NCBI RefSeq assembly: GCF_042660085.1
Contig: NZ_JBHSTI010000005.1
Span: 334 to 21,143, forward strand
Source: Longivirga aurantiaca
GTDB taxonomy: Bacteria > Actinomycetota > Actinomycetes > S36-B12 > CAIYMF01
Reading direction: 5' to 3'
DNA length: 20,810 nt
Numbering within the stretch: position 1 is the stretch's first letter; every line of letters begins with the position of its first letter. Positions 838 to 20,810 of the stretch are shown piece after piece. The notes under the pieces are model-generated. The model had not been told where the DNA came from, did not search any database, and saw only the letters and a program-made list of their open reading frames with translations. Position numbers and translations under genes: made by a program.

Positions 838-1632
838 GTGGTCGTGCCGCGCTACCTGACACCTGAGGACGTCATGCCGGAGGACGAGGGGGCGCGAACC
901 GGCCCCGTGGTCAACGTGCACGTGTCACTTAACTTCCCCGAGATGACGGCCCACACCGCGGACCTCATGCGGAAGTCGATCCGCTCGGCGCTGACCGCGC
1001 TCGCTGAGCGCGACGGGGACTGGCGCCTGGTCGACACCTCGGGGGAGCTCCCGGAGCCGCGCGAGTGCCTCGGCGACGGCGTTCTGGTGCTGGGCGGCGG
1101 CGACGTCGACTCGGAGCTCTACGGCGTGCCCGGCCCGGTGCCGCACGAGTTCGGCGTGGACGAGCGTGCGGACCGGTTCACCATCGCGGTTCTGAGGGAG
1201 GCCCTGGGCGCCGAGGTGCCCGTCCTCGCCGTGTGCCGGGGCGCCCAGCTCCTCAACGTGGCGCTGGGGGGCACGCTGGTCCCGCATCTCGACGATTCTC
1301 AGCACCTGCACCGCGGGGCCAGTGCGGACGATCTCTTCGTCGACGAGCACGTGGTCGTCGAGCCGGGGACCAGGCTCGCCGAGCTGTTGGGCCACCGGGA
1401 GTGGACCGTGCGGGCGGCGCACCACCAGGCCGTCGACGTCGTCGCTCCCGAGCTGCGTCTGGCCGCGAGGTCGGTGGACGGCGTGGTGGAGGCGGTGGAG
1501 CACCCGGACAAGTGGGCCTTCGGAATCCAGTGGCACCCGGAGGACGACGACGGCCACGGCCACGACCTCGCCCTGCTCTGGGGCGCCCTGTGCCAGGAGG
1601 CGGGCCGCGCCCGCAACCTGTCGGAGCCGTGA
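838..1632 (+). CDS. Class-I glutamine amidotransferase-like hydrolase (peptidase C26, gamma-glutamyl-GABA hydrolase/PuuD family)
   Basis: Nucleophile Cys context AVCRGAQLLNVALGG, plus HHQAV and GIQWHPE motifs. The first 250 aa of track ORF 79..1632 are Arg/Pro-rich shadow sequence, so I moved the start to GTG 838, which is preceded by GAAGGGA. ATG 874 is an alternative start. Confidence 0.8.
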   Translation: MVVPRYLTPEDVMPEDEGARTGPVVNVHVSLNFPEMTAHTADLMRKSIRSALTALAERDGDWRLVDTSGELPEPRECLGDGVLVLGGGDVDSELYGVPGPVPHEFGVDERADRFTIAVLREALGAEVPVLAVCRGAQLLNVALGGTLVPHLDDSQHLHRGASADDLFVDEHVVVEPGTRLAELLGHREWTVRAAHHQAVDVVAPELRLAARSVDGVVEAVEHPDKWAFGIQWHPEDDDGHGHDLALLWGALCQEAGRARNLSEP

Positions 1633-1791
1633 GCCCGACGGCCCTCCGTCGAGCCGCCCACCCGTCGCCCAACCCAGTTGCGCAGGCCGCACGGTGATCG
1701 TGAGGGCGATCATGGCCAAGGAGCCGGGTGGGCGAGCCGACGCTGCTCGGTCGCTCGGGGGCGCCGTCCTCGGCGCTGAGGCCCCGGCGGG

Positions 1792-2172
1792 TCACGCCTC
1801 GAGGACCGCCCCCATGAGCTCCAGGGTGGCGGGCATGCCGCCGTTGCCCCGCAGGGCCTTCGCGACGTAAGGGACCGGCTCCCTGCCCGCGGGGCTTGTC
1901 GCGGTCTCGGTGGCCAGGACCGCGTCGTACGTGCTCTCGACGCACCTCGCCTCGCTCGAAGTCCCGGGTGGGCCGTCACGGCGAGGGGAAGGCTCCAACC
2001 ACTCGGTGGACACGGTCAGCACGTCGACTACGGCATCCGGCCATGTGCCAGCCGCGGCCACCGTGCCTGGCGGCCTGACCAGCACTGCAGCAGAACACTG
2101 GTCGACGTCCCTCAAGGTCGGCCAGAACAGGTCATTCAGAGGATGGACTGGGGTGTCGAGGAGACTCGTCAT
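1792..2172 (-). CDS. Hypothetical protein (126 aa)
   Basis: Intact ORF with G/C-biased third codon positions. Its ATG at 2172 lies 1 nt after the stop (2174-2176) of the upstream small ORF, suggesting a coupled pair. I recognise no family motif. Confidence 0.5.
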   Translation of the reverse strand: MTSLLDTPVHPLNDLFWPTLRDVDQCSAAVLVRPPGTVAAAGTWPDAVVDVLTVSTEWLEPSPRRDGPPGTSSEARCVESTYDAVLATETATSPAGREPVPYVAKALRGNGGMPATLELMGAVLEA

Positions 2173-2173
2173 G

Positions 2174-2386
2174 TCAACTCTTCATGAGCGGCAGCTGTTG
2201 CGAGCGTCCTCGAAGCTCTGCTGCCGCCCACCGGCCCCAACTGTCCACGAGTGCCGTCGAAACCACGACTCGATGCCATCCAGTGGCGACTTCAAGCGAC
2301 TCTTGGGTGTACTCCTGGCCGGACTTGTACGAGTCGGTCCAGACAAACAGGCGAACGAGAAGGAAGGCCGTGTCGCCACACGGCAC
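2174..2386 (-). CDS. Hypothetical small protein (about 70 aa; start uncertain, alternatives TTG 2440 or GTG 2530)
   Basis: The C-terminal two thirds (VPCGDTAFLLVRLFVWTDSYKSGQEYTQESLEVATGWHRVVV...) look protein-like, while the upstream part of the track ORF is Arg-rich junk. GTG 2386 is preceded by GAGGATACGAGAAG. The stop abuts the next ATG. The DNA here is locally more AT-rich. Confidence 0.35.
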   Translation of the reverse strand: MPCGDTAFLLVRLFVWTDSYKSGQEYTQESLEVATGWHRVVVSTALVDSWGRWAAAELRGRSQQLPLMKS

Positions 2387-2699
2387 CTTCTCGTATCCTC
2401 GAGCCCCTCCGGAAACGCCACGGTCCTCGCAACTCCTCAAATCGAGGTGTTGCGAGGACCGCGTGAACCCGTCTCGAGGTCGGGGCCGTCGTCGTTCGTC
2501 GGGCTTCCTGTCCCGCTGTTCTCGGCTCACCCGAACGAGGCCGTCGCCAGGCGATGCCGCGTGCGGAGGCCGAGCTGCGTCGGGCCCTCCACCCGGGTGC
2601 TTCCGCCTCTGCGCTCAGGAGCGGAGCGAGCCCGACGGGTCGACGTGTCGTCCCGCGGCGCTTCGGGCGCCGGCGCTGCGTCTCGGGCGTTATCATCCG

Positions 2700-2713
2700 A
2701 TCAATCGATTGAT
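2700..2713. promoter_or_regulatory. Perfect 14-bp palindrome ATCAATCGATTGAT, candidate TetR operator
   Basis: The sequence equals its own reverse complement. It lies 43-56 nt upstream of the TetR ATG (2756) in an AT-rich patch (TTATCATCCGATCAATCGATTGATTGATTGC) of an otherwise GC-rich region. Confidence 0.5.
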
Positions 2714-2755
2714 TGATTGCTGGTGAGGGGTCTGGGCGGGAGGAGGCACGGCGGG

Positions 2756-3412
2756 ATGAAGTCCGACGACGTGCTCCGGGCCGCGGTGCTGCTGTTCGCG
2801 CGACAGGGTTACGCCGCGACGGGTATCCGTGAGATCGCGCGTGAGGTCGGCCTGAACTCCGCGACGCTATACCACTACGCGAACGGCAATGAGGGGCTGC
2901 TCGTCGCCGTCATGCAGAGCTGCCTCGACGAGCTCCTCCGCTCGACCGACGAGGCCCTCCGTCACAGCGACGACCCGCAGGTGCAGCTCGGGCGGCTGAT
3001 CCGGGCCCATGTCGGGCTCTCGGCCCTCAACCCGCTGTCCTCCCGTGTGACGGATCAGGCGTTCCGTTCCTTGGGGCCTGCCAACCGCGCATCGCTGCTG
3101 GTGCTGCGGGACAGCTACGAGTCGCAGCTGGGTGCCGTGATCGATGCCGGCGCCCGAGCCGGTCTCTTCGATGTCGCCGACCCTCGGCTCACCCGGCTGG
3201 CGATCCTTGAGATGTGCAACGGCGTCGCGAACTGGTACCGCCAGGCCGGCCGCCTGCCGATGCGGGCCGTGCAGATGCAGTTCGTCGACTTTGGCTGCCG
3301 CCTCGTCGGTGCGCCGGTGATGGACGAGGCGGAGCTGGGCCCCGTGCAGACGCCGCACCTACTTCGCTGCGAGCCGTACGCCTCACCCGACACGATGGAG
3401 GACCTAGGTTGA
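2756..3412 (+). CDS. TetR/AcrR family transcriptional regulator
   Basis: N-terminal HTH signature LRAAVLLFARQGYAATGIREIAREVGLNSATLYHYA. ATG 2756 is preceded by GGGAGGAGG. The track start TTG 2717 only adds a Gly/Arg-rich leader. Confidence 0.9.
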   Translation: MKSDDVLRAAVLLFARQGYAATGIREIAREVGLNSATLYHYANGNEGLLVAVMQSCLDELLRSTDEALRHSDDPQVQLGRLIRAHVGLSALNPLSSRVTDQAFRSLGPANRASLLVLRDSYESQLGAVIDAGARAGLFDVADPRLTRLAILEMCNGVANWYRQAGRLPMRAVQMQFVDFGCRLVGAPVMDEAELGPVQTPHLLRCEPYASPDTMEDLG

Positions 3413-4290
3413 ACATCACCGATGCGCGCGTCCGACTCCCGCAGGACCGACGGACCAGTGCGAGCTACTCGGCTCCGGCCCGGCAGACGGAGCAGTACGA
3501 CCGCGTCCTCGGGCTGACCGACAAGATGAACGGCGGCACGCTGTCCGGCCTGCTGAAGGAGATGGACGCCGTCGGCATCAGCCGCGCCGTGATGCATGCC
3601 GAGTCCGAAGGGGGCGAGGACGCCGATGCGCTCAACACCGCTCTGCGCTCCGTGCTCGACGAGCACCCCGACCGGTTCTTGGGCGTGGGCTGCGTCGACG
3701 TGACCCTGTCATCGCCGACCGCGATCGCGGCGCAGGCCGCGCGCGCGCAGGACCTCGGGCTGCTGGGGGTGTCGTTCCAGCCTGCATTCTTCGGCCTCGA
3801 CATCGACGACCGCCGTCTCTACCCGCTCTACTCCAGGGCGGAGGAGATCGGCCTCGTCGTCGCCGTCCACACGGGGATCAACTACAGCCGCCTGCACCCG
3901 ATCAAGCACGAGCGCGCGGAGAACCTCGATCAGGTCGCCTGCGACTTTCCCGACCTGCGGCTCATCGCCTGCCACGCGGGCTGGCCCTGGGTGACCGAGT
4001 TCGCGGCTGTTGCGCGGCGCCATCCGACGGTCTTCCTCGAGTACGGCGCCATCGCACCCAAGTACGTCGCGAGGCCTGGCACGGGTTGGGATGTCCAGTT
4101 CGCCATGATGGCTAACGTCCTTCGGGATCAGGTGCTCTACGGGAGCGATTGGCCGATGATCAGCCCGAGCCGGGCCGTGCAGGAATGGCGGGACTCCGGT
4201 CTGCCGGACGCGGCGCTGGAGGCGCTGCTCTCGCGCAACGCCGAGCGGCTCTTCGGTCTTGAGGGCGGCGGCGTGGGACTGCCGACGTGA
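3409..4290 (+). CDS. Amidohydrolase-2 family (PF04909-like metal-dependent hydrolase/decarboxylase)
   Basis: Motifs VAVHTG, IACHAGWPW and LYGSDWPM. TTG 3409 overlaps the TetR stop (TTGA) and follows GGAGGA at a 7-nt spacing. The upstream part of track ORF 3214.. overlaps TetR in another frame and looks like shadow sequence. Confidence 0.85.
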   Translation: MNITDARVRLPQDRRTSASYSAPARQTEQYDRVLGLTDKMNGGTLSGLLKEMDAVGISRAVMHAESEGGEDADALNTALRSVLDEHPDRFLGVGCVDVTLSSPTAIAAQAARAQDLGLLGVSFQPAFFGLDIDDRRLYPLYSRAEEIGLVVAVHTGINYSRLHPIKHERAENLDQVACDFPDLRLIACHAGWPWVTEFAAVARRHPTVFLEYGAIAPKYVARPGTGWDVQFAMMANVLRDQVLYGSDWPMISPSRAVQEWRDSGLPDAALEALLSRNAERLFGLEGGGVGLPT

Positions 4291-5807
4291 CCCTGACCCT
4301 GTCCTCGCAGCTCCGTACGGCAGCGGAGGACTCCCCGGACAGGGTGTTCATCCGAACCATGGGCGAGGAGCTCACCTACGCCGAGACGTGGACCCGCGTG
4401 CGGGTGCGCGCCGGGCAGCTCCGGGAGGCCGGGATCCGGCGCGGGGACTCCGTGGCAGTCGTAATGGACAACAGCGCCGATCAGATCGTGATCTGGTTCG
4501 CCCTGAATGCACTGGGTGCCCTGCATGCAGCGCTCAACACCGCGTTCACCGACGCACGGCTGGCGCACAACCTCAGGGTCTCGAAGGCATCGTGGGTGCT
4601 GGCCGACGACCAGTACCTGGCAGACGTCCAGCGCGGCATCGGGACCCATGAGTTGCCCGCGCGTGTGATCCCCTCGAGTGCCGTCGGCTCGCTGCCGGGG
4701 GCACCGGTGGACGAGGCGGAGCAGGTCGACGACCTGGCCACGGCCACCCTTCTGTTCACCTCGGGCACCACGGGCGCGTCGAAGGCGTGCGCCCTGTCCA
4801 ACCGCTACCTGGTCCGGGCCGGCCAGCTGCACGTGACGTACCTTGGGCTGACGTCCGACGACGTCCTCTACAGCCCCTTCCCTCTCTTCCACATAGACGC
4901 GGCGACCCTCACGGTGTCGGCCGCCCTGGTGGCCCGAGCGACCGCGGCGATCGGGCTGCGGTTCAGCGCCTCACGGTTCTGGGACGAGGTGCGGGCCATG
5001 GACGCCACCGTCTTCAACTTCATGGGCGCCACGCTGACGATCCTGTGGAAGCGCGACCCCGACCCGCGCGACAGCGACCATCGGGTCCGGCTCGCCTGGG
5101 GCGTGCCGATCCCCGAGTGGAAGGCCGAGTTCGAGCACCGGTTCGGGTTCCCGCTGTTCCAGGTCTACGGGCTGACCGATGGAGGACTTCCCGCCTACGA
5201 CCCCATCGACGGCTCGCAGCGGCCGGGGTTCGCCGGGCGCGTGATCCCCGAGTACGAGGTGCGCATCGACACCGCCGCGCGACGGCACGGCGACCCCGAG
5301 GGCGTGGGCGAGATCCTCATGCGCTCCCGGGAGCCGGGTCTGATGATGAACGGGTACTTCGGGGACCCCGCAGCGACCGAGAAGGCGATCGTGGACGGGT
5401 GGCTGCGTACGGGCGACCTCGGGCTGCTCGATGGTGACGGCTATCTGGCCTTCCACGGTCGTCTGACGGACTCTATCCGCCGTCGAGGCGAGAACATCTC
5501 CGCCTTCGAGGTCGAAGAGCTCGTCGGATCCCACCCGGACGTGGTCGAGGTCGCCGCGGTCGGTGTGCCCAGCGACCTGACCGAGGAGGACGTGCAGGTG
5601 TGGGTCGTTGCGCGCCAGGGCAGCGGACTCACGGCCGAGACCCTCCACCGCGATCTGGCCGAACGTGGTCCCCGCTACCTCGTTCCCCGCTACTACGCGT
5701 TCGTTCCGGCCCTCCCGAAGACGCCGACGGAGAAGGTGGAGAAGTTCGAGCTGCGGTCGGCGGGCACGAGCACGTCGTGGGACTCCGAGGCCACCAGCGG
5801 CGACTAG
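4287..5807 (+). CDS. AMP-dependent synthetase/ligase (acyl-CoA synthetase, CaiC-like)
   Basis: AMP-binding motif LLFTSGTTGASKA, and GDLG..DGDGYLAFHGRLTDSIRRRGENIS. GTG 4287 overlaps the amidohydrolase stop (GTGA). Confidence 0.9.
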   Translation: MTLTLSSQLRTAAEDSPDRVFIRTMGEELTYAETWTRVRVRAGQLREAGIRRGDSVAVVMDNSADQIVIWFALNALGALHAALNTAFTDARLAHNLRVSKASWVLADDQYLADVQRGIGTHELPARVIPSSAVGSLPGAPVDEAEQVDDLATATLLFTSGTTGASKACALSNRYLVRAGQLHVTYLGLTSDDVLYSPFPLFHIDAATLTVSAALVARATAAIGLRFSASRFWDEVRAMDATVFNFMGATLTILWKRDPDPRDSDHRVRLAWGVPIPEWKAEFEHRFGFPLFQVYGLTDGGLPAYDPIDGSQRPGFAGRVIPEYEVRIDTAARRHGDPEGVGEILMRSREPGLMMNGYFGDPAATEKAIVDGWLRTGDLGLLDGDGYLAFHGRLTDSIRRRGENISAFEVEELVGSHPDVVEVAAVGVPSDLTEEDVQVWVVARQGSGLTAETLHRDLAERGPRYLVPRYYAFVPALPKTPTEKVEKFELRSAGTSTSWDSEATSGD

Positions 5808-5938
5808 CCTCGATCTTTCGCGCGGGGTCTGATCTGGTGGCGTGACACGGGTCTTGAAAGCACGGAAGTGCCTGTCCTGGTTGGGAAACTACTGATTGTC
5901 AAGGTCAGCAAGTTCCCAGCGAGGAAGGCACTCCGTAG

Positions 5939-6229
5939 GTGAAGAATAGCCGCCGGGTCGTCCCGGTCATCATGGACCCGTCGAACGAGTCGCTGATCTC
6001 CTCCGCGGGTGGGTCGCTGTTGCTGGCCACAGCTCGGGCGACCGGCCTGGATCGGGCGCTGTCAGCGGGGTTGGCTCCGTGGCGGGTACCGCGGGCGGTC
6101 CACGACCCGGGCAAGGTGATCCTTGATCTCGCGGTCGCGTTGGCCCTGGGCGGGGACTGTCTCGCGGATGTCGCGGCCCTGCGTGCCCAGCCGACACTCT
6201 TCGGTGCGGTCGCCTCGGATCCGACGGTG
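5939..6229 (+). pseudogene. IS1380-family transposase, N-terminal ~97 codons only (truncated remnant)
   Basis: SLISSAGGSLLLATARATGLDRALSAGLAPWRVPRAVHDPGKVILDLAVALALGGDCLADVAALRAQPTLFGAVASDPTV matches my recollection of the conserved N-terminus of actinobacterial IS1380-type transposases. The similarity stops near 6229 and no DDE domain follows in any frame. Confidence 0.6.
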
Positions 6230-6620
6230 TTGAACCACCCTGGGTTGCTTGGAGGCTCCATCAAACCCAGGGAGGTTCACCGAGGCCGGTCCGACGGCCC
6301 TGGGACCGGTGGCGAAGGACGCCACGTGCATCGAGACACTGCGCGCAAGCCCATCCCTGTCCCCCGCGGCATCAGGTTCTGGTGACGGGCTCGAAGCCAC
6401 GACCCCGGTCACGCGCCCGGCACCGCCAATCACATGCCCACCCGCGTCCTGCACGCCGCCACCGACCAATACCCAGGAGCGTCAGCCGTTCGCCCGCGCG
6501 TGGACCGCGTGGGCTCCCCTTGGGCTAAGCCATGGCCACAAGGGGCCAAACAAGGCCAGCAGAGGGCAAGAGGCTGTTGGGTGAAATTCCCGGAACCCCT
6601 ACAGGACATGGAATCTGTGG

Positions 6621-6663
6621 GGAGCGGGTGACGGGAATCGAACCCGCACTGTCAGCTTGGGAA
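6621..6663 (-). other. 3' fragment of tRNA-Gly(CCC), anticodon loop to acceptor end; att-type remnant, not a functional tRNA
   Basis: The minus-strand sequence reads TTCCCAA GCTGA CAGT GCGGG TTCGATT CCCGT CACCCGC T CC. This gives an anticodon loop with CCC, a 4-nt variable loop, a T-arm, an acceptor 3' strand and the Gly-typical U73 discriminator. The sequence 5' of the loop (GCAAG) cannot pair with GCTGA, and there is no D-arm or 5' acceptor strand. Confidence 0.65.
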
Positions 6664-6685
6664 CTTGCCGGCCTTAGTTCCCAAG

Positions 6686-7660
6686 CTACCCGTTGCTCGC
6701 CGAAGCGATGGCCTCGACGAGGTGGCTGAGGTCTTGGTCGATAGCGGTAACTTGAGCGGTAACGGCGGCAGTAATTGCTGCATCGGTGGCGAGAGCAAGA
6801 CGACCGCGAACCCAAGAGAGGAACTTCCGTGCGGCGCCACCGTCGGGGCGGGCCGACTGCAGGTCGGCCTCGGCGGCGGCCACGAGCTGCTGCCCCTCTT
6901 CTGAGTCACCCGCCAGCTCGAAGCGGCCAAGGATCTTGACCAGGCCACTCATCGCCAAGACGAGTTGCTCACTGGTCACGTCCACGTTCATGACCTGTCG
7001 CGCGTTGTCGCCCGTTGCCACCTGCACCTGTTGGCCGCTGACGTTCCAGGTGATTTGCTGCAACGTCACTGCTTCCCGCGAGCTCACGTACGCGTCGGGG
7101 TCCGAGTCGTACTGCTCCACGCAGACTAGGCCAGCGTCGGTGAGCCGCGGTCGAATAGGCCCGTTGTTGCCGTTCGAGCGCGGACCGTCTATCAACTGCG
7201 TTCGTGCAAGCCACCCTGCCGCACGATCCGATTCTTCGACGGTGAACGGATCTCCGTAGAAGCGGGATAGCCTGCTAAGGCTCCAATCACCCCAGTTCGC
7301 GAACTGCCCGCTTTCCTCCGTGGCGTCCGATTCTGCAAGCCATCGGAGGATGCCGCGTCGGACGGCAGCGCGGCGGCCGAGGACGTCACTGCGTTGTAGG
7401 TGGCGGCGAGTCACGGCGGAACGACCCTCCGGCGTGACCTCTGCAGCCATTCCTGGTAGCCCACCCATCCCGCTGTGGTCACGGATCAAGCCTGCCGCAG
7501 TCAGGCGTGACACGTCCTGATACGCGATACGCGTGTTTTCGGGGTCATTGTCGTAGAAGCCTGCGAGGTATGGGATTCCCTCAGCCTGCTCCACCATCCA
7601 CTCCAGCAGGCGGTGGCCACGCTCAGCGTCGGGGTCGGTATCGACCCAAGGGAAAGTCAT
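6686..7660 (-). CDS. Hypothetical protein (324 aa) with two winged-helix-like repeats and an Ala-rich helical C-terminus
   Basis: Start moved to ATG 7660 (MTFPWVDTDPD...) because the upstream 50 codons of the track ORF are Arg/Cys-rich junk. There is no SD, but TATGAT sits at -12..-7 relative to the ATG, which fits a leaderless mRNA. Internal repeat: LLEWMVEQAEG..AAGLIRD..VTPEGRSAV versus ILRWLAESDAT..GWLARTQLIDG..LTDAGLVCVE. Confidence 0.7.
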   Translation of the reverse strand: MTFPWVDTDPDAERGHRLLEWMVEQAEGIPYLAGFYDNDPENTRIAYQDVSRLTAAGLIRDHSGMGGLPGMAAEVTPEGRSAVTRRHLQRSDVLGRRAAVRRGILRWLAESDATEESGQFANWGDWSLSRLSRFYGDPFTVEESDRAAGWLARTQLIDGPRSNGNNGPIRPRLTDAGLVCVEQYDSDPDAYVSSREAVTLQQITWNVSGQQVQVATGDNARQVMNVDVTSEQLVLAMSGLVKILGRFELAGDSEEGQQLVAAAEADLQSARPDGGAARKFLSWVRGRLALATDAAITAAVTAQVTAIDQDLSHLVEAIASASNG

Positions 7661-7939
7661 GCGCCGATCATATTGAGGTTCCCGCAGCTGCCCGAGGCTT
7701 GAGAATGGCGTTGTGACACCGCTACGGCGGCGCTTGTCGTGGCCTCGACGGCGGCAGCGCAGAACAGCGACCATGTACCGGCGGTCTCGTTCTTCGCACA
7801 GGGTCGTCATTTCGGAGTTGAGAGTGGCCGGTCTCGTTGCCGGCGGGATAGACCGGCGGCATAGAGAGGACGCCGCTTCCCGAGCGACACGTCGAGCGCA
7901 GAGCCACCGCCGTCGGACCCACCCGTCAGAATCATTCGT

Positions 7940-8623
7940 ATGCCTGACTCCTGGGTCGCGTTATTGATCGCACTGTTGGCTGTCGTACCCGGCTTTCTGA
8001 CAGTGACCATTTGGGCTAGGTCGCGGACATGGCGGGGTCCGACTGGTGACCTTCGGACCATCCTTCAAGCACTGGCAATTAGCGCCGTGATCCAGGTGGT
8101 GCTGTTCCCGCTCACTGTCATGGTCGTGTTGCCGCATTGGCGCTCGCCGGATGACTACGCCGTCTCACTTGGGGCATGGCTCCTCCTTACGGTTCTCGCG
8201 TTCCCAGTGGTGTTGGGTCTTGGGACGGCGCGGTTGACCGACTGGGTCTTTCCACTCAGGACGGCCGATACGAACTTCGGCTGGCTCCGACGATTCCTAC
8301 GCGGCGCGATCAAGCCGGTCGCGCCTCCGACGATGTGGGATTGGTGGCTCACCGAAGGTGTCCCGAATGGGCGATTCGTCCTTGCCAAGTTCCGTGATGG
8401 CTCGTATATCGGTGGCGTCTTCTCAGATGGTTCTATGGCGCTGACATCCCCGGAGCCGCACGGCATCTATCTGGCGAGTGAGTGGCTTGTGGATGAGGCA
8501 GGGGACTTCGTGGGCGAGATTCCGCAAACTGGCGGTGTGCTGCTGCCGCTCCGAGAAGACATACTGTGGCTACGGGTTCAAGGCGATAACGGGACGTCAG
8601 AGGTTGGTGACGATCGTGCCTAG
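7940..8623 (+). CDS. Membrane protein with 3 N-terminal TM helices and a C-terminal soluble domain; DUF6338-like (from memory)
   Basis: TM segments WVALLIALLAVVPGFLTVTIW, ILQALAISAVIQVVLFPLTVMVVL and LGAWLLLTVLAFPVVLGLGTA. The C-terminal part is PTMWDWWL..GRFVLAKFRDGSYIGGVF..PEPHGIYLASEWLVDEAGDFVGEIP. Transcribed divergently from 6686..7660. Confidence 0.75.
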   Translation: MPDSWVALLIALLAVVPGFLTVTIWARSRTWRGPTGDLRTILQALAISAVIQVVLFPLTVMVVLPHWRSPDDYAVSLGAWLLLTVLAFPVVLGLGTARLTDWVFPLRTADTNFGWLRRFLRGAIKPVAPPTMWDWWLTEGVPNGRFVLAKFRDGSYIGGVFSDGSMALTSPEPHGIYLASEWLVDEAGDFVGEIPQTGGVLLPLREDILWLRVQGDNGTSEVGDDRA

Positions 8624-8735
8624 TCAGAAGGCGCTGCCGGCGGCGCAGGAGACAAAGGGTCAAGCGCCAGGGTCAGGCAAGGTGCCCTCGACGCCGCCAC
8701 CTCCGAAGCCCAGTGCGACGAGGCGAGGAGCGTGA
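8616..8735 (+). CDS. Mini-ORF 1 (39 aa) VPSQKALPAAQETKGQAPGSGKVPSTPPPPKPSATRRGA
   Basis: GTG 8616 overlaps the stop of 7940..8623 by 8 nt (GTGCCTAG). It shares the G-x-VP-x-x-PPPPK core with the next two mini-ORFs, even though the DNA has diverged. Confidence 0.35.
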   Translation: MPSQKALPAAQETKGQAPGSGKVPSTPPPPKPSATRRGA

Positions 8736-8741
8736 CAGTCG

Positions 8742-8855
8742 ATGGCTGACGATCAGGGGCAGAGAGGCTCGGTCCTCGGCAATGGTCGGGTTCCGAAGAC
8801 CCCGCCTCCTCCCAAGGCAACGCCTCCCAGCAAGCCAAGCGGTAGCAAGTCCTAA
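8742..8855 (+). CDS. Mini-ORF 2 (37 aa) MADDQGQRGSVLGNGRVPKTPPPPKATPPSKPSGSKS
   Basis: ATG 8742 has AGGAG 11 nt upstream. It is in the same frame as mini-ORF 1, separated only by TGA plus two codons. It carries the conserved core GRVPKTPPPPK. Confidence 0.35.
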   Translation: MADDQGQRGSVLGNGRVPKTPPPPKATPPSKPSGSKS

Positions 8856-8874
8856 CGTCGGCGGAAGCGGACCA

Positions 8875-8991
8875 GTGGGAAAGAAGGTGACGGGAGGCGC
8901 CGTCACTGGCAAGGGCGGCGTGCCCAGCAATCCGCCCCCGAAGGCGGGCGACAAGGGAGCTGGGTCCAGGAAGCCGCCGCACGGGGCTTAG
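8875..8991 (+). CDS. Mini-ORF 3 (38 aa; alternative GTG 8887) VGKKVTGGAVTGKGGVPSNPPPKAGDKGAGSRKPPHGA
   Basis: Third copy of the core (GGVPSNPPPK), in a different frame from copies 1 and 2. It forms the C-terminal part of track ORF 8713..8991, whose N-terminal part is Arg-rich shadow sequence. It overlaps the antisense tail of the integrase ORF. Confidence 0.3.
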   Translation: MGKKVTGGAVTGKGGVPSNPPPKAGDKGAGSRKPPHGA

Positions 8992-10525
8992 CCAAAGCAG
9001 GACGGGCCGCGATCCTGGTCACTCGTCCCCGTCTCGTCCCCCAGCAACGATCATGGGTTGACACGAGAGGGCCCATTGGCGCTCGCATCGGGCTGTTCTG
9101 GTACATCCGCGCAAGCGTGACGCCTGCCTGCGACGCCCTCGTAATGCGTAGGTCATCGGTTCGATTCCGATAGGCGGCTCCATCTTCAAGTCTCTGACCT
9201 GCGGCGATGCTGTCGGGGTCACCCTCGGGATCGTCGTCTGAGGGCGAGTTGCTCACATGTTGCTCACGGACTCGCTGGGATGCGTCGTCTGCGCGCGGCA
9301 CGAGGGACCACGCCTTGGCAGCTGCTTCGCTTCCGACGCCGGGCAGCAGGTGGGTGTAGGTGTCCGAGGTGATGGCCACGGAGGAGTGTCCGAGCCGCTT
9401 GCTGACCACGACGATGTCGACGCCGGCGGCGAGCATGAGCGAGGCCTGGCCGTGGCGCAGGTCGTGCAGTCGGATGCGTCGTAGCCCGATCTCTTCGGCG
9501 AGTTCCTGGAAGCGGTCGGAGAGCCGGTCGGGGTGCAGGGGTACGCCGTCGGGCCGGGGGAACACGAGGTCGTGGTCGTTGTAGGCGTCGCCGAGCGGCG
9601 CGCGGGCGGCGTCCTGGCGCAGGCGGTGGGCGAGCAGCACGCCGACCGTGTGCGGGTCGAGGTCGACGACGCGGTCCTCTCCGCTGGCGGTCTTCGGTCG
9701 CCCGAATGCGATGCGCCCGTGGTCGGCGCCGCACTGCGCGCACGGGCGGGAGAAGCGCGCGGTGAGGGTGACGACCTGCTGGCGTACGTGGAGCCGGTTG
9801 CGTTCGAGGTCGACGTCGGACCAGCGCAGCCCGGCCGCCTCTCCGCGGCGTAGACCGGTGGCGGCCAGGAGCTGGAACGCGGGCCCGAGCGGGTCGTGGT
9901 CGGCGTGGTCGAGGAACCGGCCGAGCTCCTCGGGCTCCCACGGGCGCACGCGCGGACGCGGCACCGACGGCAGGTCGATGTTCGCGGCCGGGTTCGTGGG
10001 GATCAGGCGCGACTTCACCGCCGAGCCCAGCGCCGAGCGGAGCGAGGCGTGCACGCGGCGCAGGGTGGCTGGCTTCATCTGACGGTCGGCCTGGATGGAG
10101 CGCAGGGCGCTCTCGACGTCGTGGGGGCTCAGGTCGCGCAGGCGCACGTGCCCGATGCGGGGGATGAAGTACTGATGCACGTGCGCGGTGTACGTCGCGG
10201 CGGTGGTGGGCCGGACGCCGTCGGCGACCTTGCCGGCCAGCCAGTCGAGCAGGAACTGCCCGACGGTGATGCTGTTGACCGCGACGCCGACGCCGCGGGA
10301 GCCGGCGTCGATCACCTCGGCGAGCGCCTTCTCCGCGTCCTTCTTGGTCGCGAACCCGAACCGGGTGAGCTGACGGCGCGCGACGTGCTCGCCGTCCGGG
10401 TTCGGTCCCGGCCCGAGGTCGACGGTGTAGCCCCAGGACCCGTGCTTCTCGGAGCAGGCCTTGCGCCGGCCGCGTGAGTCGAAGACGGCGGGGCACTGGC
10501 AGCGCTTGCGAACGGTTCCGCGCAT
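8903..10525 (-). CDS. int: Tyrosine recombinase / phage-type integrase (ORF runs to the first stop; the last ~130 codons cross the tRNA-Thr fragment and look non-native)
   Basis: N-terminal Cys/His arm-type domain (KRCQCP...CSEKHGSWGYTVDLG). Catalytic residues in context: GLRRGEAAGLRW, HDLRHGQASL, LGHSSVAITSDTYTHL. ATG 10525 is preceded by GAGGGAGGA. Confidence 0.9.
   Translation of the reverse strand: MRGTVRKRCQCPAVFDSRGRRKACSEKHGSWGYTVDLGPGPNPDGEHVARRQLTRFGFATKKDAEKALAEVIDAGSRGVGVAVNSITVGQFLLDWLAGKVADGVRPTTAATYTAHVHQYFIPRIGHVRLRDLSPHDVESALRSIQADRQMKPATLRRVHASLRSALGSAVKSRLIPTNPAANIDLPSVPRPRVRPWEPEELGRFLDHADHDPLGPAFQLLAATGLRRGEAAGLRWSDVDLERNRLHVRQQVVTLTARFSRPCAQCGADHGRIAFGRPKTASGEDRVVDLDPHTVGVLLAHRLRQDAARAPLGDAYNDHDLVFPRPDGVPLHPDRLSDRFQELAEEIGLRRIRLHDLRHGQASLMLAAGVDIVVVSKRLGHSSVAITSDTYTHLLPGVGSEAAAKAWSLVPRADDASQRVREQHVSNSPSDDDPEGDPDSIAAGQRLEDGAAYRNRTDDLRITRASQAGVTLARMYQNSPMRAPMGPLVSTHDRCWGTRRGRVTRIAARPALAKPRAAASWTQLPCRPPSGADCWARRPCQ
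9138..9182 (+). other. 3' fragment of tRNA-Thr(CGT), anticodon loop to CCA; att-type core next to the integrase gene
   Basis: The plus strand reads CTCGTAA TGCGT AGGTC ATCGG TTCGATT CCGAT AGGCGGC T CCA. Upstream there is no GCCGCCT acceptor 5' strand and no D-arm, and the 5' anticodon-stem strand ACGCC pairs at only 4 of 5 positions. Confidence 0.6.
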
Positions 10526-10547: not shown

Positions 10548-10811
10548 CTACTGCGATACCGGACCGGCGACGGTTGCGCCAGCGCTGGGCGGTGAGCCTG
10601 CGGACGACACGCCGGCGCTGTCCGAGTCGTCGACGAGGCGTAGCAACGCAGCGGTGGGGATCCGGATGAGCTTGCCGACGCGCAGGACCGTGGTGGGCCA
10701 CAGGTCGGCTTTGACGAGCTCGTAGGCCAGGGTGCGTCCGATGCCCAGCACGCGCGCGGCTGTGGGCAGGTCGACCAGGGGTGGGAGCTGCTCTATCTCG
10801 GTGCGGTTCAC
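10548..10811 (-). CDS. xis: Excisionase-family helix-turn-helix DNA-binding protein
   Basis: LVDLPTAARVLGIGRTLAYELVKADLWPTTVLRVGKLIRIPTAALLRLV is the typical MerR-like excisionase HTH. GTG 10811 is preceded by AGGAGA at a 5-nt spacing. It ends 22 nt upstream of int. Confidence 0.8.
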   Translation of the reverse strand: MNRTEIEQLPPLVDLPTAARVLGIGRTLAYELVKADLWPTTVLRVGKLIRIPTAALLRLVDDSDSAGVSSAGSPPSAGATVAGPVSQ

Positions 10812-10942
10812 GGGGATCTCCTGACTGTCCGTTGCCCCGCGGCAGCGGTGGCACGACAAGGTGCGCACCGAAGGGCACCGACACGCGTCGGACGCAGACG
10901 GCTGCGTCGCCAGCTGCGTTACCTGGCGGTGTCGGTTGCTGG

Positions 10943-11168
10943 GACTCCGTCACGCGACTCCGCCGCCGCCGCGCTGACTGTCATGGACTCCGTCACCGAC
11001 TCCGTCACGGACTCCGTCACCGGGTGGGGGCCGTCCTCCGACTCCGTCACGGCGCTGACGGCGGTGCCAGCGCTGTCACGGAGTCCGTCATTGACTCCGT
11101 TACGGCGCCGAGGTTGGTGCCCGGGCTGTCGTGGAGTCCGTCACCGACTCCGTCACCGACTCCGTCAC
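10943..11168 (+). repeat. Iteron array: 11-bp motif GACTCCGTCAC, 7 perfect and 3 one-mismatch copies, all in one orientation
   Basis: Perfect copies start at 10943, 10986, 10998, 11010, 11040, 11146 and 11158. One-mismatch variants start at 11081 (GAGTCCGTCAT), 11093 (GACTCCGTTAC) and 11134 (GAGTCCGTCAC). A degenerate copy lies at 10956. Two triplets (10986/10998/11010 and 11134/11146/11158) and one pair (11081/11093) are in 12-bp phase. Confidence 0.9.
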
Positions 11169-11338
11169 GTGTCACTGGGCTCCCTCACGTTGAAGGCCCC
11201 GACCCCAGCCCCCGGCATCGAGGACGCGCCTCCCTGGTCCGGCGAGCCCTTCAGCACGGCGTGTCGTCCACAGCCGGTGGTGCGGCGCTGACGCCGGGCT
11301 TCTTCGCCAACTGTGACCCTGGCTAGCTGGAGGTGAGG

Positions 11339-11701
11339 ATGGTCGACGTCGACGATGGGGGAAGCCGCGCGCGGGCGGCGCTGGAGTGCGCGTTGGTGGG
11401 CCTTCTGGCCGATCTGCGCCAGCACTGGCGCGACCACGCCGTGTCCCTCGGTGTCATCGGCGCCACAGAGCGTATGAGCGCGATCCTGCGCGCTCCGAGC
11501 TCGGGGAAGGTAGGCCACGGCGCGCTCTCCGGCGGGCCGGCCGAGCGCTTGGTGTCGGCGCGTGCCGCGGTGGTCTTCCTCGTCGACAACGCCGAAGCCT
11601 TGGACCTGTCAGCTGAACTGCTCCTGCTGCTTGCCCGGGCGGCGCACGCGCTCTCGGCGGCCGAACGTGTGCTGCTCCCCGGCTCCTGGGAAGCACGCTG
11701 A
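11339..11701 (+). CDS. Hypothetical protein (120 aa), predicted helical
   Basis: ATG 11339 is preceded by GGAGGTGAGG. Third codon positions are strongly G/C-biased throughout. I recognise no motif. It is divergent from xis-int across the iteron region. Confidence 0.55.
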
Positions 11702-20643: not shown

Positions 20644-20810
20644 ATGGCCGTCACCCGTGCCACAGCGCGCAACGCGACCGACCCGGCCGGCCGCCGCGGG
20701 CGGACGAACTCCGCCGGATCCGAGGGGGAGTCCGCCAAGGAGCTGCGTACGCGCAAGGCGATCGCGCGGGCGTGCCGTGAGGGGTCGCGGCTGTTCGCGG
20801 AGAAGGGTTA
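20644..20810 (+). CDS. Probable TetR-family regulator, N-terminal part (3' end outside window)
   Basis: Open frame from ATG 20644 to the window edge. TRKAIARACREGSRLFAEKG resembles the start of a TetR HTH domain. It is absent from the ORF track because no stop falls inside the window. Confidence 0.55.
   Translation, partial: MAVTRATARNATDPAGRRGRTNSAGSEGESAKELRTRKAIARACREGSRLFAEKG

Follow-up and report, generated by a model that had tools for sequence, protein, structure and literature searches.

A probable seam between two tandem islands at tRNA-Thr(CGT) and a recurrent inverted tRNA-Gly(CCC) core in actinobacterial genomes

Introduction

Actinomycete integrative and conjugative elements (AICEs) have been described in tandem within one tRNA gene, namely Sav3708 and Sav3728 in tRNA-Arg of Streptomyces avermitilis and Fean5518 and Fean5534 in tRNA-Lys of Frankia, and it has been reported that the integrases of tandem AICEs can be of different subfamilies and that tRNA remnants serve as integration sites (PMC3218068). 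Here we analyze a 20,810-nucleotide (nt) stretch of the Longivirga aurantiaca genome (hereafter the window) in which 3' fragments of two different tRNA genes, tRNA-Gly(CCC) and tRNA-Thr(CGT), point outward from a cargo of about 2.5 kb, with an integrase gene and an excisionase-like gene on the far side of the tRNA-Thr fragment. We consider it probable (about 0.65) that the window is the seam between two different islands, T2 on the left and T1 on the right, integrated in tandem at tRNA-Thr(CGT), and that the tRNA-Gly piece is the core and P' arm of a Gly-family attachment (att) site inside T2.

Like tandem AICEs, the two islands would stand in line at the 3' end of one actinobacterial tRNA gene, each with its own tyrosine integrase and with a tRNA 3' fragment as the middle att site. 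Unlike tandem AICEs, each has a further att site, of a second specificity, close to its far end; moreover, no Rep or FtsK-like Tra family was detected with Pfam among the open reading frames (ORFs) of the window, which does not classify as an AICE. T1 and T2 are probably best regarded as islands or mobilizable elements, not as demonstrated AICEs. The site-specific accretion of integrative and conjugative, integrative and mobilizable, and cis-mobilizable elements has been reviewed, with ICESt1/ICESt3 of Streptococcus thermophilus and Streptomyces pathogenicity islands as cases (PMC5704250). Accretion in these cases involves internal sites of one specificity and one orientation, whereas here an inverted Gly site recurs 1-2.5 kb from the Thr attR.

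For the Gly site, the closest described system is mycobacteriophage L5, which is reported to have a tyrosine Int, an attB in a tRNA-Gly gene, a 43-bp common core and a 29-bp minimal attB (PMC7142372). The likeness lies in a Gly-specific integrase of the source genome (int_G, on contig C58) that is ~32% identical to integrases of cluster-A (L5-type) mycobacteriophages, in a 43-nt segment of identity with tRNA-Gly, and in tandem arm-type repeats on both arms; unlike L5, the carrier is a genomic island and not a phage, and the site in the window has a P' arm only. The ends of integrated mobile elements are also regarded, as a general concept, as hotspots of accessory and defense genes. Taken over all loci with paired Gly and Thr cores, the cargo resembles such hotspots in its short, low-GC, rapidly exchanged genes beside an att site (a Hypoth_Ymh gene, a weak GapS1 match, and a domain that in other proteins is joined to CHAT or kinase domains), but differs in that no cargo gene reaches a curated defense threshold and in that it is bounded by two att sites of different specificity.

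Results and discussion

Two tRNA cores in outward orientation

The window comprises positions 334-21143 of contig C5, nearly the entire 21-kb contig, of a high-GC actinobacterial draft assembly (G000; 3.67 Mb, 71 contigs). Throughout, G000 denotes this source genome, G0xx other genomes, Cn contigs and L0xx extracted loci. Gly and Thr cores were scanned for separately across 63 genomes of the family. The two cores of the window are as follows.

6621..6663, minus strand: tRNA-Gly(CCC) 3' core of 43 nt, an apparent orphan attL-like site; 43/43 identity to the tRNA
9138..9182, plus strand: tRNA-Thr(CGT) 3' core of 45 nt, probably the middle att site in a tandem array, serving T2 as attR and T1 as attL; 45/45 identity to the tRNA, and arm motifs

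The Gly piece extends from the anticodon loop to the discriminator of tRNA-Gly(CCC), the only gene for which in G000 lies at C2 c6231-6303, and the Thr piece is identical to the 3' end of the single credible tRNA-Thr(CGT) gene (C3 26817-26893), with 52/53 positions matching over 9130-9182. Judged by their length, exact matches of 43-45 nt cannot have originated by chance. A first-pass annotation, made from the letters of the window, had already described both pieces as running from the anticodon loop to the 3' end and as facing outward, Gly on the minus and Thr on the plus strand with the 3' ends pointing away from the cargo, and the genome comparison bears out both statements. Its further statement that the window holds no complete tRNA also stands. 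ARAGORN called zero tRNA genes in the window, Rfam returned no match at the Gly fragment, and the Rfam tRNA model matched 9092-9179 with a sub-threshold 23.8 bits against a gathering score of 29; given that score, a D arm lengthened by an insertion of 25 nt and an acceptor stem with G-U pairs and mismatches, this match is not a tRNA gene. A covariance model calling a complete tRNA at either locus had been named as evidence that would speak against the annotation, and neither locus was so called.

Beyond the intact genes on C2 and C3, the genome-wide tRNA search that had been proposed returned further core copies on C8 and C58: Gly cores at C8 8992-9034 and C58 28401-28443, with a partial copy at C8 642 kb, and a Thr core at C8 11367-11411. 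Two ARAGORN calls of "tRNA-Thr(cgt)", at C8 607998 and 1946381, are oversized (94 and 86 nt), lie in coding-like DNA and are probably false positives. At 10/10 fragment sites examined, identity to the tRNA ends at or within six bases of the anticodon loop. The earlier claims that both pieces are att cores made by site-specific recombination, that the layout is beyond the reach of one simple integration, and that the integrase and excisionase genes go with the Thr core are all upheld by the comparison.

The tRNA-Thr site joins the arms of two island families

The Thr core is flanked by the following features.

8992..9137, plus strand: T2 P arm (of "type 1"), in which CTCGTCCCC is repeated in tandem, at 9022-9030 and 9033-9041; 64-70% identity to the P arms of G018:C1, G007:C44 and G043
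9183..9300, plus strand: P' arm of island T1, with TCTGACCTGCGG at 9193-9204 and TTGCTCAC at 9249-9256 and 9260-9267; layout common to int_T1 sites
8903..10525, minus strand: tyrosine integrase int_T1; PF00589 (E=2.9e-23), PF22022, PF14657, PF14659 (arm-binding domains)
10548..10868, minus strand: excisionase-like helix-turn-helix (HTH) protein (xis); HTH_17 (E=3e-4), weak TIGR01764; 56-66% amino acid (aa) identity to xis beside int_T2 and other integrases

The flanks of 20 Thr sites were compared, with arm-motif positions counted relative to the core (+ after it, - before it). Two island families emerge, the integrases of which, int_T1 and int_T2, are 28-30% identical to each other. Wherever int_T1 follows the core (six sites including the window), a tandem TTGCTCAC pair is located at +67/+78, and where it follows an intact tRNA-Thr (G005, G004, G011, G039:C92 and G042), the P' arm begins with TCTTCAAGTCTCTGACCTGCGG; the TTGCTCAC pair recurs at -137/-126 in the "type 2" P arms of C8, G039:C77, G041 and G042. 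The CTCGTCCCC pair is found at +61/+72 wherever int_T2 follows (C3, G018, G007 and G044; +69/+80 in G043) and at -116/-105 in the P arms of the window, G007:C44, G018:C1 and G043, the pair at the latter position being confined to arms paired with int_T2. Cognate pairing is seen on single contigs in G018:C1 (33.7 kb, int_T2 with a CTCGTCCCC, type-1 arm), in G043:C3 (28.7 kb) and in G041:C125 (7.8 kb, an int_T1 remnant with a TTGCTCAC, type-2 arm).

Set against these pairings, the Thr site of the window has the T2 motif upstream and the T1 motif downstream, followed by a full int_T1, and is the sole such site in the arm-motif table. A T2 P arm and a T1 P' arm at one core are what would be expected where the right end of a T2 island abuts the left end of a T1 island. 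In G007:C44 and G039:C3 there are kindred junctions, in which a type-1 arm and the core are followed by no more than 16-35 nt of T1 P' arm; the G039:C3 site lies beyond the arm-motif table and has the T2 pair upstream and ~35 nt of the T1 P' arm downstream. We also considered whether the CTCGTCCCC region left of the Thr core might be the leftover 3' end of an integrase gene, and rejected this since the presence of the pair on both arms fits arm-type sites better. An ARAGORN "tRNA-Gln(ctg)" about 900 nt from tRNA-Thr, which had seemed to contradict an island at that position, proved to be a false call inside the int_T2 gene (G018:C1, L014 7650-7726; G007:C22, L015 7832-7908). As the window shows, arm-type repeats can distinguish tandem junctions from unrecombined attP sites with no need for experiments, and can order draft contigs across an island array.

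The integrase itself (P0001) shows visible HDLRH and TYTH motifs and classifies as a lambda-Int-type tyrosine recombinase. It shares 79% aa identity with the integrase of G005 and 96% with that of G039:C92, both of which adjoin an intact tRNA-Thr. Its conserved part spans ~9183-10525 and the open frame reads on across the Thr core to 8903, by which the frame initially given as 9264..10496 (minus strand) is corrected to 8903..10525. This extension through the core (8903-9182, minus strand) is ~90 codons longer than in G005, where the frame ends within the intact tRNA, and so the junction at which the integrase gene sits determines its C-terminal tail.

The tRNA-Gly site and the Gly-type element

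To the left of the Gly core lie an att arm and the body of an element.

1184..6498, no strand assigned: body "X2" of a tRNA-Gly-type island, embedded in distal T2; 97.4-97.7% identity to C2 1-5946, and Pfam matches
2717-3412: X2 gene, TetR
3214-4290: X2 gene, amidohydrolase
4287-5807: X2 gene, AMP-binding enzyme
5939-6385: X2 gene, DDE transposase fragment
6499..6620, minus strand: P' arm of a Gly-type att site, with the repeat pair TAGCCCAAG at 6519-6527 and GAGCCCACG at 6508-6516; pair conserved at other Gly sites
6654..6687, minus strand: perfect 11-bp inverted repeat, 6654-6664 and 6677-6687 (AGCTTGGGAAC / GTTCCCAAGCT), with a 12-nt loop; read directly from the sequence

The left flank of the window is a ~97.5% copy of C2 1-5946, the DNA that follows the intact tRNA-Gly(CCC). 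It had been taken for plain chromosome downstream of tRNA-Gly, a view we abandoned, as empty tRNA-Gly sites (G010, G046 and G008) show a terminator and a GAATCGGGAGGA motif without a P' arm and the flank bears Gly arm repeats; it is instead the P' arm and body of a Gly-type element. The TAGCCCACG pair is located at +94/+105 or +95/+106 after the core in the window, at C8-9k, in G018:C1 and G039:C77, and at the intact tRNA-Gly of C2, G018 and G009, and at -81/-70 beside int_G at C58 and G018:C2. The int_G homologue of G018:C2 is 96% identical to that of C58, and the core there is followed by true chromosomal flank. G000 thus has a single canonical Gly island, its attL lying on C2 and its attR on C58. 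A co-assembled second strain with an empty site was considered as a source of the match between the left flank and C2; it was rejected because nearly all small contigs of G000 are unique in sequence, which places the duplication within one genome.

At the Gly site of the window, the P-arm motif on the cargo side and the 5' half of the tRNA are both absent, so that it differs from a canonical attL, and the left neighbor of the core reads CAAG (CAAC or CATC elsewhere) versus CAGC in the tRNA. By its sequence features, the Gly piece is an attL-like orphan site 2.5 kb inside the distal end of T2. The whole arrangement is found on one contig in G018, with the Gly site placed 2 kb inward from the distal end of T2, which makes the Gly site an internal feature of Thr islands rather than an outer boundary. 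A Gly-type element, or part of one, may have been joined to a Thr island by Gly-integrase recombination at the core, through nested accretion or capture as we infer it, and a nested or captured Gly-type element would be the simplest reading of the origin of the site. A complete nested Gly element was rejected, G000 having one int_G and one P arm only and the island of G018 being without int_G.

The inverted repeat pairs the stretch of the Gly core derived from the anticodon loop with letters that overlap the first cargo gene's stop codon, and may be a terminator hairpin built from the att core; its counterpart on C8 is weaker, at 6 bp.

Contig order and the proposed tandem array

G000 has exactly three Thr cores (the intact gene on C3, the window and C8), each spanned by its contig, and this is the number required by a two-element array. 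The layout expected of a tandem array, an intact tRNA with at least two further cores and a middle site joining the T2 P arm to the T1 P' arm and integrase, is what we find. On C3, the region upstream of tRNA-Thr is syntenic with G018 (82-95% aa identity), as is the first 2.5 kb of the island (int_T2, xis and one ORF). At the other end, the Thr fragments of C8, G018:C1 and G007:C44 have orthologous genes on their outer side. The right end of C5 is the N-terminus of a TetR gene (about 20744-20810 of the window), its last 67 nt being shared with the end of C9, and the start of C8 is a TetR C-terminus, with 122 nt shared with the start of C9; C9 (49 kb, 69% GC) is the only other contig with both TetR ends. 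These common ends imply that C5 leads to C8 either directly or via C9. Two paralogous TetR genes probably break the assembly here, and C9 would be either part of island T1 or a circle.

In the array that we propose, C3 would provide the intact tRNA-Thr followed by int_T2 and xis, which open island T2. The left 9.1 kb of the window would be distal T2, ending in the T2 P arm and the 45-nt Thr core, with the 2.5-kb cargo as the variable accessory end of the island between two conserved att arms. After the core, island T1 would open with its P' arm, an apparently intact int_T1 and xis, leave the window via the split TetR gene into the start of C8, and end with its own P arm and the second Thr fragment, beyond which conserved chromosome resumes. 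A newcomer would integrate into the intact tRNA regenerated by the resident element, T2 then having arrived after T1. The Thr fragment would lack a 5' half because it is a displaced middle site, being neither an attP nor a product of deletion. Among the options raised by the first-pass annotation, the fusion of two decayed elements comes closest in spirit to this reading; what does not hold is the decay, the int and xis of the second element being apparently intact, and the fusion would be ordinary tandem accretion at tRNA-Thr.

Several observations weigh against the proposed array. C3, C5 and C8 are not physically joined in the assembly, the C3-to-C5 join being wholly inferred and the C5-to-C8 join resting on the split paralogous TetR gene. 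A clean empty tRNA-Thr site was not found in relatives, and in the apparently empty G009, G046 and G010 the DNA downstream of tRNA-Thr lacks synteny with the flank on C8. On the Gly side, G000 has three Gly P' arms but one P arm and one int_G, no int_G is present in the fully assembled island of G018, and a naive Gly landing pad was not found in related Thr islands without the core. Finally, the left flank matches the sequence next to the actual tRNA-Gly gene at 97.5% identity, with which an array at tRNA-Gly would also be compatible.

Recurrence of the Gly/Thr bracket and alternative readings

Outward pairs of Gly (minus) and Thr (plus) cores were detected at five loci in four genomes.

G000:C5 (window): outward pair, gap of 2474 nt
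G000:C8: outward pair, gap of 2332 nt
G007:C44: outward pair, gap of 1100 nt
G039:C77: outward pair, gap of 1671 nt
G018:C1: outward pair, gap of 2007 nt

In both island families, a Gly P' arm and core come first, then variable cargo, then a Thr P arm and core. The bracketed cargo differs at each of the five loci and usually has a GC content below that of its surroundings (61-66% between the two fragments of the window, compared with ~69-75% around them); at other pairs it includes a 643-aa protein with a weak GapS1 match (C8), a Hypoth_Ymh protein, and an HTH protein with a 283-aa ORF. The Gly cores are identical at 43/43 positions in 4/5 loci and at 42/43 in G007:C44. By contrast, the P' arms next to them mostly share only 56-76% identity (44-60% for G007:C44). 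Which DNA stands on the P' side of the Gly core varies from genome to genome, and in G000 it is a copy of the resident Gly element. Such a conserved core with variable partners suggests either repeated recombination at the core or selection on it. Although tandem accretion is known in Actinobacteria, we found no description of a recurrent dual-att bracket in the literature. A related unit was observed in G018:C3 (2.52 Mb; L016 6808-9495), where an intact tRNA-Phe with its own integrase is followed by a Hypoth_Ymh gene abutting a Gly(CCC) core; this unit is homologous to that of G007:C44, so that it is also carried by islands of a third specificity.

Could the bracket be a functional module and not a scar, with the orphan Gly site kept as a second docking or exchange site for hitch-hiking on the Gly integrase, capture or cargo swapping? 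The recurrence of outward pairs in both island families around unrelated cargo of 1.1-2.5 kb argues for it, as does the near-perfect conservation of the Gly cores beside diverging P' arms, and the varying P'-side partner suggests repeated recombination. However, neither a P arm nor a second Gly integrase is present, related Thr islands (G041, G043 and a 5.3-kb metagenomic island) manage without a Gly core, and core identity would be equally expected if each junction were young. We regard this reading as rather unlikely. In its specific form, a maintained two-site module that docks to or is moved by a Gly-specific, L5-like integrase, or that swaps cassettes of 1-2.5-kb cargo, it is a little less likely still; cassette swapping, if true, would amount to a natural counterpart of recombinase-mediated cassette exchange at heterospecific sites. 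Were the Gly site active, it would offer islands of different integrase specificity an extra route to merge, to capture DNA and to exchange small accessory, possibly defense, cassettes; were it only a scar, the window would represent ordinary, well-resolved island accretion in a little-studied actinobacterial genus.

A further option raised in the first-pass annotation was that of a single composite element at tRNA-Gly(CCC), with the Gly fragment as its outer boundary and the Thr site as its own unrecombined attP beside int and xis. The Thr site does have element-type DNA on both sides in a P-core-P' layout, and the close match of the left flank to DNA after the intact tRNA-Gly would be expected after insertion of such an element between the tRNA and a Gly element already resident there. 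An unrecombined attP should, however, carry repeats of the same cognate integrase on both arms, whereas the arms of the window Thr site belong to two island families, the P arm bearing the repeats of int_T2 and not those of int_T1; where int_T1 elements have both bounds on one contig, and in G039, their P arms are of type 2. A composite element would also leave the C3-C8 island with mismatched arms, two copies of the element DNA are needed regardless since the C2 tRNA-Gly already has its own, and the right end of C5 leads to C8, where the Thr array ends, and not to tRNA-Gly. We consider this option improbable.

An assembly chimera, in which C5 was mis-joined at the repeated 43-45-nt cores, gains some plausibility from the presence of these cores three to four times in a 71-contig draft and from the concentration of contig breaks in island DNA. 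It is nonetheless very improbable, in that comparable junctions exist in independent assemblies of other species (G007:C44, G039:C3, G018:C1 and G039:C77), the Thr junctions lie on exactly three contigs, all of which run across their cores, and 43-45 nt is less than the length of an ordinary read. Deletion of the 5' halves of two formerly complete tRNA genes, also raised earlier, would account for the missing 5' halves only and is scarcely credible given where the junctions fall in the anticodon loop and that the adjoining DNA in several genomes is a conserved element arm rather than tRNA upstream flank.

Cargo and other features of the window

Under the tandem-island reading, the DNA between the two cores is the accessory end of T2. 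It encodes the following.

6686..7660, minus strand: cargo gene 1 (P0005), 324 aa from Met51 of ORF 6686-7810; uncharacterized family
7940..8623, plus strand: cargo gene 2, DUF6338 membrane protein; PF19865 (E=1.8e-28)
8620..8991, plus strand: three short ORFs rich in proline, each bearing the motif G-VP-x-PPP(P)K, conserved together with DUF6338

P0005 had no match in Pfam, NCBIfam or PADLOC. Its family includes 460 representatives at E<=0.001, and its N-terminal ~200 residues are fused in other proteins to a CHAT protease, a Ser/Thr kinase or pentapeptide repeats; fusions of this type are common in conflict systems. A defense assignment of the cargo was not obtained from any curated model above threshold (PADLOC for P0003 and P0004; NCBIfam). 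A homologue of the DUF6338 protein with 80% identity is encoded on a metagenome contig, at the far end of a complete tRNA-Thr island of 5.3 kb, which lends support to the proposed reading of the Thr side; window positions 7912-8944 are 70.6% identical to L037 4202-5231. The proline-rich mini-ORFs, of ~35-40 aa each, are ~70% conserved at the nucleotide level in the metagenomic tRNA-Thr island (L037 4900-5300) and may be real small proteins. The cargo was also considered as a conserved gene pair, which was rejected as DUF6338 is found without a partner of the P0003 family.

To the right of xis, the window continues into island T1.

10781..11701, plus strand: two conserved ORFs of the proximal island region (181 and 122 aa); nt identity of 75% with C3 28245-29511 and of 74% with G018:C1
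11830..20810, plus strand: body of island T1, with a transaldolase, a luciferase-like monooxygenase, a short-chain dehydrogenase/reductase (minus strand), a 460-aa ORF, a branched-chain amino-acid ABC (ATP-binding cassette) permease and two ATPases, and the start of the TetR gene; Pfam

Within the proximal ORFs we observed a 43-nt direct repeat, 93% identical and with its copies 148 nt apart (10978-11020 and 11126-11168); a related stretch is present at C3 28496-28584, and the repeat may be a regulatory or replication repeat of the island core module. In the Gly-type element on the left, the C2 copy (898-1914) has ~1 kb that is absent from the window copy (2080-2200), overlapping a 411-aa minus-strand ORF; this extra DNA may be an insertion sequence. 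Between the AMP-binding gene and the transposase fragment of X2, a sub-threshold Rfam match to the actinobacterial small RNA Ms_IGR-7 was noted at 5834-5935 on the minus strand (24.5 bits against a gathering score of 45, E=0.37).

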